Positions 1-19,331 of a stretch of DNA of 64,000 nucleotides are shown piece after piece. The number at the start of each line of letters is the position of its first letter. The stretch's first letter is position 1. Both the position numbers and the translations under genes were made by a program. This DNA comes from Obrimoposthia wandeli. Taxonomy: Eukaryota. Below the pieces are notes generated by a model. It searched no databases. It had not been told where the DNA came from and worked only from the letters and a program-made list of their open reading frames with translations. The stretch is taken from the NCBI GenBank assembly GCA_977020255.1, contig CDROCS010001306.1:310001-374000 (forward strand), given 5' to 3'.

Positions 1-2082
1 GACAATGTACTTTAAGGTCAACTTAAGGTCATGACGTCATGAGGACAACTTAAGGTCATGGTGAGGTCAAAAATATTCTATTTTTAGTAACATTCTTTAA
101 ATCTATATATATTTTTATCTAAAGACTGTATTAACACCAATTCAACAAAATACATCTAGTGTGTGTGTGTGTGTTTTATAATTTAAATTAAATTATCTAC
201 TTATAAAATAAAGTATTATATAATTTGATAAATTTATTTAAACTAAATTAAATTAAACTATCTACTTATAAAATAAAGTATTATATAATTTGATAATCAT
301 GTTTAAACGTTCCTATATCGATCTAACAAAGACAGTCACGTACTGCATCTATATTGCAAAAACCTGCAAATTTATGTAAATAAAGACAAGTATTTCAAAC
401 ACATATATTCCTTAAAATCACAAAGGAGAATAAAAATATGTACAACACATATAAAAAGTTTATACAACCTCGTCCGGGTATAAAAAGTGACCATAGGCGA
501 CTGAACGGTTTTTCTCCACCCACTTGCGCTTATCATCACTACTACTTAAGGCAATTTTACTTAACCTTACAGTAAAAATTTGATGATTTAGGGAGCTTAT
601 ACGTTGTTGTTGTACACGCTCGCTAACGCCACTCTCATATACGGCTAAGTAATTAGAGTGCCTAATACTCGTTTGTCGGAGACTAATACCTTTCGCTCTC
701 ATCTGAGATTCACCTTCTGTAGTCTCTAGGCTATATGATTTTGGTCGTAGAAAAATCCCTTGCCTATAACTAAATAATCCCTTACTCTCATCTTTAAATT
801 TTCCTATCGCTGTATTAAGCGTCGTATAAAGCGGATGGGTTTTTGGAAATTTCGAGGTATCCAACAGTCCATCAGCAATCATAGCAGGTAACAGTGATTC
901 TTGAACATTGACATTATTACACTTTAAGAAAAAGCTATCAGTGTCACCCGCTATAATTCTAATGTCGCAGTTAAATTGAACTCGATATTTCTCCAACTGC
1001 TCATATTGTAGCTCATACATACGAAGTTTGCTTAAATCTAATACTGCCTGGCCCATGTAACTAGGACGATCCAAAACAATATTTTCCTTATCCAGTAAAA
1101 CTGCAATAAGGTCCGTATCGATTTCGATTGTCCTACGAAAGTGGGCTTTACTGCAATAGGTAACCAGCTTCTGTGGAGTATTACAAATCCGGAGGTTAAT
1201 TCTTTTCATCAGATTCTCAATGAGTTTTCCAAATAAAGAATTCACCTTCAGTTTGTAGTAATCCCGCTCGAAATCTGTTGTAGCTGCAGCTCTTTTGAGA
1301 GAATTATCCTCAATATATTTTGAAAAAACATTAGTTTGTTCAAACTGTATTGCTCTATATACAAAATCTACCTTAGCACCAAGTCTAACGTACATTTGTA
1401 GCAATCTAGAATGCACAACATAATGTTTCTTAGGGTAATGCGTTAATAACAATTTTTCAGTCTTACACCCTGGTGGACGCTGTTTAATGGGAGCAAGGGG
1501 AAGATCGTCGAATTTATTATGAAGCTCGTTGGGAATGGATAAATCTATTTCCAATAAATGAGCGAAACGACTACAGGATAAATCTGCTGATTTTAAGCTG
1601 GAAATAATATTCCCCAACTCTAACCGATCAGTCACTCAGGAAAAGTTACCACAAGGTAAAAACTGGGACATAGCCCACCCGTACAAATTATTTACATCAA
1701 TGTACAAAAGTTCTGTACCATTGATGGCGTCAACGCGGTGTCCATTAACAAATGTCATACCCCCGCGAATCCCAGACCGGAAGAGTCGGTACATTTCTGG
1801 ATCCTGTATTAGCTCGACTCGCACAACGGGAGAAGAAGAAGAAGCCGGACGAAGCAGGGATTTGAAAGCACTCGCGAAAGTCAGTCCTGGAAATAAAAAC
1901 ATTTATTAAAATCATTGTGAAAATCATTGTGAAAATCATTACTTTGAAAATCATCTATCTAACAAAGACAGTCACGCATCTATATTGCAAATACTTGCAT
2001 CTTTATGCAATCAATAATAACAAGTACTACATTTATTCTTATACATGTATATATATATATATATGTGTTAGTGTCTAAAATT
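1..2082. repeat. Left arm of the terminal inverted repeat (truncated by the window edge)
   Basis: Reverse complement of ~14234-16294 (position 1 pairs with 16294). There are only scattered differences, e.g. T59 versus C, and a 1-bp indel in a T-run at 15542-15545. Similarity fades inside the PolB intron at ~2040-2082. Confidence 0.95.
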
Positions 2083-16648: not shown

Positions 16649-19331
16649 TAAAAATTTTGTCCTCAGGAGGGGGGGCTTTGTGCCAGAAGTGCTACATCTA
16701 CCTACTCACCTAGACGGATACAGCAAGCAGTGGCGAGGAAGACGAAAAGGGCTGGGAAGTCTACCACCAATATGCTCACATCTGCCGAGGTGGTGAATGA
16801 AACGACAGGAGATTTTCCCATCTCTAATGGTCGACGGGCCCATATTGTACGAGAGGATCCCAGTCTCTCCGATTGAATTTAGTCTTCTTCCCAGCCGACG
16901 TCGCCTTCAAGAGACCTCATTTACGCTCCCTATAGTTCAGCAGCCATCGAGCCTCAGTCAAAACTAGGCGAGAGCTTGAGAGGCTGCGTCTTCTCTTCCT
17001 ATGGCATTATTAAGCCAGAATTTGAAGATGGCCTAACTCGATGCTGGGTTGCATGAGCTCCTGGCAGTACTGGAGACTCCATAACAACCGGTCGTGTATC
17101 TAGTTTCAAATAGGCAAGAGGATACGGTGGCATGTAGGCTGGAGCGTGAAAGAAGGAAAATTAAGAAAGCTCCATGGAAGAGGAAGGCTTCAATACCATC
17201 ACCTTCGTCTGGACCATCTACATCGGCTGCACCGCCTCCACGTTGCAGGAACTCCTGCCAAAACCGCCAGAGACGGCAATTGATGCACAACAACCAGCAG
17301 TTGTACAGCCGAATAAGAAGGAGCCAGTACCGCTCCCGCCAATACCACTACGTCGGAAGTATATATATTTTATACTTTAATTTTATGATAAAAATATTTT
17401 TTAAATATGCATTTAAAAAAATTATTTAATAGTAGATAATTGATTTTTCTTTTAATAAACAATATTTATTAAAAAAATTTAAGTCTTTTTCATATTTTTT
17501 AAAATTAATTTATAATGAAGACATAAATTTTAGTTATAATGCTTGTAACTTAAAGATGCTTTCTTAATTAATTTAACTACATTAATTAGTTATTGATTTA
17601 ATAAAGTGTACCAGAGATATAAAATTGTTAGTTAAATAGAATATATTCTTTTATAGGAAGTAATTGGATTAAAAAAATCTCAAATTTATATAAATATGTT
17701 CAACTTTATTTATCACTTCATTATTAAAAAAAGGAATTTACTCAAATGAAGAAGCTTGTGACAACGATAGAGGAGAATGTCCGAAAGGATACAAAGACAG
17801 GTGGAGATTCAGTAGAGGAGACAAACTGAACGAAGAAGGCGGAATTGGAGAAACGACAATTGGCCGAAAAAAAGAAAGGTGGATATGGAAAATAAACATC
17901 GAGCTGAGAGAAAAAATATCCTTCAAATTCAAACAGAAAAAGGGCCTTCTGGAATTTTTTTTATAAAAATATTTTTTTGATTTTATTTATTTGTTACAAT
18001 TATTTTTATTAAATAAATATTTGAAATAACCAAACAAAATATAAACAATTTTATATATGAGGATTCCATAAGATGAATGATGAGTTTTTTTGAATAACTT
18101 ATACATTAAATTGTCTCCTGACTTAGTGGAAGATTACGTTATTTTTTTCAATAAACGACACTCCAGAAAGTGTTGCAAATAAAATTACCAATTTACTTTC
18201 AAACTATTTAGGTAGAATTACATTTCATATAATATTCTTAGGATAATTAAAAATATATAACAATATTAACGAGAAAAAATTAATTGCGATCCTGCACGCG
18301 TTAGTCCTCAGGTGGCCCCTCAGGTATTTTCTCACTCTGTGAGTGCACTATGATATTTTCAGTTTTAAGGGGTCTTAAATGGAGTTAATTTGTATTTTAT
18401 GGTTGTGGGGCGCAGAGTTGTAAAAAACACTTATACATTACTTTATGTAATTCATAAAGTCCTATATAATGATTTAGTGGCTGTAGTATGGACAAATTGG
18501 GGAATTTCAGAAACTATACGGTAAGCCATAAGTCGTAGGGACGTGCTCAAAATCGCGTTTGATGAAATTCAAGTATCCTATGCGCTTAATCTTCGAATTT
18601 CAGTTCGCCACCTTGACCACTGTACCATCCACCGCCTAAAAAACTGCACTTGTACATTTGAAAAGTGTATATATGCCTGAGGACATATTTAGATTTCAAT
18701 CTCACTCCAAACACATGCACGAAATTTCACTCAACACACATGCACGGTTTTAAAGGACAGTGGTACCCCATGGGAAAGAGGCGGTGGATTAGACCAGACA
18801 TATTCACCTACTAATGTTTAAATGTTATTTAATCATATACACTTATTTTGATTTTGACTTGTTTTTGTAGTCCCAAGTCTATTTCAGTATGTAGAATTTG
18901 ATGACATAATAAGGGTTAAGGAGACAGCATTTGTCTACATGTACCGAAATGAATGGCATCTTTTGTGATAGTCAAGAAAACTCTGACGCACAAACATTGC
19001 AAATCTTTGAGGGCCATGTACAAAACAACTTTTAATATAACTTAAATTTTGTACTGACAATTGATGTATCAATTACAGGGTTGTTTAATTAATAACTTAC
19101 AAATGTTCATTTTAGAAACATTGAATTTTACAATAAAACAAAGGTAGGTACTGAGTCGTGTATTAATTTATATACAGTTTTCTATAAGCATACTTATTAT
19201 AGAAGATACAAAATTTGAAGTACATGAGTATCGATATTTGTTTTGTGTGCTTCATCACTTCTTTTTTTTCAGCTCAGCAACTTAATTATTTTAATGGGTT
19301 ATTTACATTTTGATATTGTTAGCCGATACCG

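Follow-up and report, generated by a model that had tools for sequence, protein, structure and literature searches.

The stretch of DNA analysed here, called the window, comprises 64,000 nucleotides of Obrimoposthia wandeli (contig CDROCS010001306.1, positions 310,001 to 374,000 of the forward strand). A Maverick/Polinton copy of 16,938 bp was found at its left end, between termini at positions -231 and 16706. The left terminus lies in the adjoining genomic sequence (-231 = G000:C1306:309769). An initial annotation, made from the sequence alone, had proposed that the terminal inverted repeats (TIRs) of this element had grown inward and captured the catalytic exon of its polymerase gene, polB. 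The features concerned are listed below in window positions, negative numbers lying to the left of the window.

1..16706 (true left terminus at -231, outside the window), no strand: Maverick/Polinton element, recognised by termini, target-site duplication (TSD) and genes
-231..2078 (1..2078 in the window), 2,310 bp, no strand: left arm, with the native TIR, the polB catalytic exon and most of the polB intron
14234..16706, 2,473 bp, no strand: right arm, from self-comparison and termini
16707..16712, second copy -237..-232, plus strand: 6-bp TSD CACCTA, read in both flanks
460..1886, minus strand: left copy of the polB catalytic exon (Pol A, B, C), with an in-frame stop at 1636-1638
14411..15836, plus strand: right copy of the catalytic exon, with a stop at 14659-14661, a frame change at 15546 and no first exon upstream
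1887..2106, minus strand: polB intron, GT..AG, 220 nt, built of motif units
2107..4525, minus strand: first large polB exon (exonuclease part), single copy, weak Endonuclease_7 match; the coordinates are those of the exon body, the start codon not being mapped

Comparison of the window with itself confirmed the inverted copies: 3-2078 and 16292-14234 are 98.5% identical over 2,077 columns (E=0), with a spacer of 12 kb between the two arms. Both termini read 5'-AGTAGGTAGATG and thus have TIR ends of the AG/AGT type (5'-AGTAGGTAG at both ends), similar though not identical to the (AGT)2 motif of Maverick/Polinton ends (PMC8097293). The TSD CACCTA had been predicted on the assumption of a right end at 16706; the same 6 bp were indeed found at the left terminus, and this length falls within the 5-8 bp of Maverick/Polinton duplications. 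The proposed assignment to this class agrees with the TIRs, the TSD and the genes for a protein-primed family B polymerase (pPolB), an integrase and a capsid protein. The arms, at 2.3-2.5 kb, were also correctly recognised as longer than usual: the literature gives 46-1,447 bp for the TIRs of intact vertebrate Mavericks, which have no introns (PMC8097293), and 100-1,500 bp for Polinton TIRs (bioRxiv 10.1101/2023.08.22.554363). A segment of about 150 bp with a palindrome (16415-16565) occurs in the right arm only.

All three pieces of polB matched PF03175, which identifies the gene, broken in this copy, as pPolB; 279 relatives were found, with identities of up to 57%. Both arms contain the splice acceptor and the exon with DVNNLYG, KLKVNSLFGK and GDTDS, which we take to be motifs A, B and C. 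The exonuclease exon is present once, in agreement with the initial annotation. The 220-nt intron (GT..AG, 2106-1887) was borne out by a regular expression search in which the exon ends on its two sides fitted a contiguous S-I-P-G-L/M motif in 18 of 40 unspliced homologues. Among copies of the element the intron varies in length (200-652 nt between anchors) through tandem copies of the TIR motif, and a marker of its long form occurs at 393 places in the genome. No OTU match was obtained in a general Pfam scan of the open reading frames of the window, in which no profile or fold search was aimed at an OTU-like N-terminal domain. The idea that the right exon offers a built-in second template for the polymerase had to be given up: the element has no working second template, since a stop interrupts both exon copies and the right one in addition changes frame and lacks a first exon. 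With the same stop in both arms and no first exon, the duplicate would not give a polymerase.

The inner boundary of the repeat had been placed inside the polB intron. It does lie in the intron, but the copied part stops at 1953-2007 in the left arm and 14290-14344 in the right, and not at 2078-2082. The features that define this end point are:

177..2007, no strand: donor side of the homogenised tract, differing from the right arm by 1 substitution and 1 indel over 1.83 kb
14290..16119, no strand: recipient side of the tract, of which 14345-15916 (about 1.57 kb) is not in ordinary right ends
1953..2007, no strand: 55 bp that are identical in the polB intron and in ordinary right ends, containing the motif CTAACAAAGACAGTCAC...CATCTATATTGCAA
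317..379, plus strand: this motif again, located at the inner border of the native left TIR; further copies near 14205-14237, 14290-14344 and 15917-15979

Ordinary right ends of this family consist of the TIR, the motif and then about 125 bp with 82-87% likeness to the polB intron; in 17 of 28 such ends the whole of the 55 bp (left 1953-2007) agrees without a difference with the intron of the window copy. From 2008 inward, the two arms of the window copy carry ordinary alleles, of intron type and of right-end type. Because the arms are near-identical from 177 to 2007 and ordinary alleles follow beyond 2007, the new material amounts to about 1.57 kb, set between the outer TIR homology and the inner 55-bp match. 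This supports inward growth of the TIR with capture of the catalytic exon. The motif forms a direct repeat in the left arm, and deletion of the exon is therefore expected as well. This reciprocal product, with the catalytic exon deleted between the same motifs, was found in left ends at three loci (C749, C1671 and C4133) with a pattern that covered one TIR type only.

The mutations of the two arms bear on the time at which they became alike. Eight substitutions in the left exon are absent from 42 other copies, and seven of them are also present in the right arm. One of the shared substitutions is the in-frame stop, found in none of the 42 comparison copies. Copy-specific exon changes in the other copies comprise 77 synonymous and 199 non-synonymous changes and 14 stops, as against 31 synonymous and 5 non-synonymous changes among those common to at least three copies. 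Since the former class looks neutral, copy-specific changes appear to be mostly post-insertion decay, while the widely shared ones look like the result of selection on spreading lineages. Independent decay of the two arms would be expected to leave 13-20 differences, and one was observed. The 1,830 bp tract holds 1 substitution and the 175 bp just outside it hold 6 (Fisher p=3e-6; p=0.002 when outside the tract only the 3 right-arm alleles found in no other locus are counted). Between the outer arms there are 10 substitutions and numerous indels, with haplotype and repeat differences further out, and an allele at 592 in the left arm is not in the right arm. Because seven of the eight copy-specific mutations are shared and the outer arms differ, the arms were probably made alike by arm-to-arm conversion in the chromosome. 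Judged from these substitutions, most of the decay had already taken place when this happened, and such a late date points to the chromosome as the site. Conversion would then have carried decay damage into the second arm. Arm-to-arm conversion in long inverted repeats is familiar from Y-chromosome palindromes.

The stop was also considered as unique to the window copy. This was rejected, as 11 other copies contain the 27-mer in question, and the stop behaves as a repeated transition. Nine of these 11 copies were mapped; their distance from the window copy is 1.8-4.6%, and of its 15 other specific alleles no more than 2 recur in any of them. With the measured transition rate of 0.8% per G/C site, the stop should arise independently in about 8 of every 1,000 copies.

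The frequency of long arms was then assessed over the whole genome (1.35 Gb). Exact matches to a 21-mer from just within the right terminus number 1,017, and at least as many right ends therefore exist. A query across the right-arm junction (13700-14800) gave two full-length matches, the window copy and a locus on contig C3808, among the best 40 of 3,646 candidates; at 28 of 30 loci the match stops at 14341-14357 and a short TIR follows. An exact two-anchor pattern likewise found the long-arm junction at these two places in the genome, a lower bound, as exact patterns miss diverged copies and a tighter pattern matched the window only. Nine copies were examined whole; the right end was visible in six of them, and the exon was in none of these six ends. 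Of 20 ordinary copies, 9 gave no usable pair of termini; in the other 11 the arms measure 406-825 bp to the motif, and 7 of these 11 have an exact 6-bp TSD. Public read data, consisting of short Logan contigs from four runs of one sample, contain the ordinary short joints from 14308-14341 to 15941-15946 or 16187-16189. Some single insertions with matching TSDs have two TIRs of different length types, which suggests exchange between copies. Set against the 1,017 or more right ends, two junctions do not make the giant TIR a feature of the family; short TIRs in other copies are what the initial annotation itself had named as evidence against it. The long arms are an exception in a very abundant Maverick family, and the window copy, itself dead, has undergone a rearrangement that is rare.

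The C3808 locus is a second long-armed insertion with the same junction. It has its own TSD (CAGCAA), another TIR type and a longer intron form, and its extension is therefore an event separate from that of the window copy. Its arms are about 99.6% identical out to the termini. That its left intron was copied back from its right arm was considered and rejected, since this is a common long intron form. Exon distances place the nearest of 50 copies at 1.19% from the window copy and C3808 at 1.69%. No sister insertion of either long-armed copy was found in the junction searches or in the exon comparison with 50 copies.

A fragment of polB with 70% identity led to a second, non-autonomous family of about 13.6 kb derived from Mavericks. 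Its arms of about 5 kb include a 3' fragment of polB (about 72% identical in amino acids), and its centre carries phosphatase and TBP-like genes.

G000:C352:156559-170193; C1897:271910-285457; C406, C815, C1071, C1149; a piece at window 51049-57357: loci of the second family

A 27-mer across the inner-arm junction was counted at 302 places, as against 1 or 2 for the short form. Eleven loci selected by their inverted junctions, a sample hence biased towards long arms, showed arms of 3.3-5.7 kb in 7, the polB fragment in both arms in 5 and matching 6-bp TSDs at both termini in 4. A search unselected beyond its query returned 40 matches, 14 of them in arm pairs. The best match was the second arm of the query itself, the next copy reached 98%, and the arms of the tested copy were mutually nearest. 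In seven of eight elements most copy-specific changes are present in both arms (shared out of left-specific changes: 30/34, 17/21, 50/56, 22/26, 14/20, 13/19 and 11/16; the exception is 10/28). Some of the shared changes may have been inherited from unsampled parents, given the few comparators. The pattern fits concerted evolution of the arms after integration. That very long arms are able to spread to many sites is evident from the second family.

It seems probable to us that the right TIR of the integrated, broken window copy was extended after insertion, by host double-strand-break repair templated on its own left arm. A break near the inner right TIR would have allowed the broken end to invade the left TIR, synthesis would have proceeded through the catalytic exon of the left arm, and the new strand would have re-annealed at the 55-bp match, with the addition of the 1.57 kb to the right arm. 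The recurrence of the junction in C3808, the reciprocal loss of the exon at three loci, the lack of a sister copy in the searches made and the changes shared between arms in the second family support repair. The same route has been proposed for TIR extension in the transposon Galileo (PMC3573991) and may apply here by analogy. Several observations weigh against this reading. The stop recurs in other copies. The shared mutations give a date for the last homogenisation only; the first extension could be older, its traces erased by later conversion between the arms, a process that seems to be frequent in this genome. The differences between the outer arms are weak evidence, as the arms can be unlike in ordinary copies too (in 4 of 9 pairs), and the identity of the C3808 arms out to their termini fits fill-in at the time of replication equally well.

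The initial annotation had placed the growth of the TIR in panhandle replication. Simple fill-in, as we understand the model, predicts that the arms agree all the way from junction to termini, which is nearly the case in C3808 but not in the window copy, with its differing outer arms. What survives of the proposal is an extension during protein-primed replication before insertion, by panhandle repair or copy-choice between ends, followed by chromosomal conversion that spread the decay mutations. The near-identity of C3808 out to both termini speaks for such an origin, as do the second family, whose one inner junction at 302 places with separate TSDs indicates that long arms are heritable through mobilisation, and truncated mavirus-like elements with regenerated TIRs (PMC8547959). 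Two processes would however be needed where one suffices, the outer arms of the window copy are unlike and no sister insertion of a long-armed copy was met in the searches, so that we hold a replicative origin to be rather unlikely. An artefact of assembly or library, in which a chimeric path through the 55-bp match put the left arm into the right end, could have been favoured by the more than 1,000 near-identical copies, which make assembly difficult; moreover, the public data are short contigs unable to phase the 55-bp identity, and the junction is spanned by no read. Yet the TSD matches between distinct flanks, the arms are 12 kb apart and hence no fold-back, the allele at 592 is confined to the left arm, and the same junction and the reciprocal deletion exist elsewhere, all of which makes an artefact very improbable. 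Hardly more credible is the reverse history, with long arms as the ancestral state and ordinary copies that lost the right exon by deletion between motif repeats, two copies having kept it. The structure of ordinary right ends (TIR, motif and intron-like sequence) is the scar expected from such a collapse. Against this, the two long-armed copies differ in TIR and intron type and are not closest relatives, and in both of them the right arm has the usual right-end alleles beyond the 55-bp match. The intron-like scar itself may nevertheless go back to an expansion and collapse at an earlier time.

The remaining genes of the element are on the minus strand:

5658..6890, minus strand: double-jelly-roll major capsid gene, with a stop at 6387-6389 that is not in 16 other copies covering the site
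8271..9320, minus strand: rve integrase (PF00665 E=6e-14) with a weak C-terminal chromodomain match
9816..10482, minus strand: gene of a P-loop ATPase, divided between two frames and likely for packaging (Pox_A32 E=0.009, P-loop matches below curated cut-offs)
11027..13303, minus strand: cargo from Pfam scan and copy alignment, namely a dual-specificity phosphatase, a TBP-like gene and the RING end of a BIR-RING gene

The integrase is thus of the retroviral type found in Maverick/Polinton elements. Capsid and ATPase genes are both broken in the window copy. Sequence searches of the PDB with the capsid protein gave no match. The predicted fold of a 60% identical relative (pLDDT 87) matched the capsid proteins of iridovirus, PBCV-1 and mavirus with E down to 2e-17, and a single-sequence prediction of this relative reached a pLDDT of only 28; the assignment as double-jelly-roll major capsid protein is accordingly a model-based one, made on the relative rather than on the broken window gene. 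The reading frames at 5249-5617 and 7246-8298, perhaps an adenain-like protease and a minor capsid protein by position and motifs, gave no match in a Pfam scan. In the middle of the putative minor capsid gene, 7692-8107 did not align to 5 of 9 other copies, possibly as one of two alleles of a variable region. At 13243 the window copy is without about 925 bp found in other copies, including the BIR domain of the BIR-RING (IAP-like) gene. Elsewhere in the window, a reverse transcriptase fragment was detected at 33106-33597 (PF00078, E=2e-10), as well as a 435-bp direct repeat with 100% identity (57361-57795 and 61950-62384). More distant Maverick families with other gene orders occur beside or inside these elements in the genome, and nesting is frequent.

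The element can be compared with known systems. It resembles pfam03175-positive Maverick/Polinton elements (PMC8502044, PMC8097293, bioRxiv 10.1101/2023.08.22.554363) in size (their range is 13-25 kb), TIRs, 6-bp TSD, pPolB, rve integrase and double-jelly-roll capsid, and probably also in its ATPase, and its polymerase is of the pfam03175 type by which Alpha adintoviruses are defined (PMC8502044). The length of its arms, the coding exon in both of them and the polB intron set it apart from the Mavericks described there. Endogenous mavirus-like elements (EMALEs) are likewise integrated pPolB/rve viruses with TIRs, of 0.2-2.3 kb; they are virophages of a protist, and the available part of PMC8547959 does not describe a polymerase exon inside their TIRs. 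Long genomic inverted repeats (PMC1803023) have arms more alike within a locus than between related loci, as in the window copy, whose arms however belong to a mobile element present at hundreds of places. The closest parallel is offered by the 2RT copies of Galileo in Drosophila (PMC3573991), with sporadic extended TIRs and recruited internal sequence; the window arms are extended to a comparable effect, from the ordinary 0.4-0.8 kb. The two TIRs of one Galileo copy can vary in tandem-repeat number, and break repair from the other TIR was proposed. Unlike the window element, Galileo is a cut-and-paste transposon of the P superfamily, and no P-superfamily transposase was present among the 20 window open reading frames scanned. 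The window case further differs in its defined end point at a 55-bp intron match, in the recruitment of a whole catalytic exon and in the decay mutations that date the homogenisation. The same paper mentions, after a 2007 review, that inverted-repeat expansion was reported for Polintons too. Literature searches limited to titles and the starts of abstracts found no description of a polB exon inside Maverick TIRs; supplements with TIR tables, the founding Polinton paper and the 2007 review were outside their scope. TIR extension of this kind is known from other TIR elements such as Galileo. What is new is that the end point is mapped, in the polymerase intron, that the two reciprocal products both occur, and that long arms, of about 5 kb, have spread in a related family.

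In the window copy, the extension of a Maverick TIR can be studied as a clean case that allows dating, with a mapped 55-bp end point, reciprocal products and more than 1,000 sibling copies as controls. It illustrates that near-identical TIRs need not imply recent insertion or viral replication. The arms of the second family exceed the published ranges cited above and the 2,500-bp upper limit of a TIR survey (PMC11131425), yet have spread widely. More tentatively, and with some doubt on our side, TIR length in Mavericks may behave as an accordion driven by host repair, in which the motif shared by TIR and intron seeds duplication and deletion of the exon, the arms of integrated copies evolve in concert and extensions found long-armed lineages such as the second family. 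If this were true, TIR identity would be no clock for the age of an insertion, and TIR finders limited to 2.5 kb would miss whole families.

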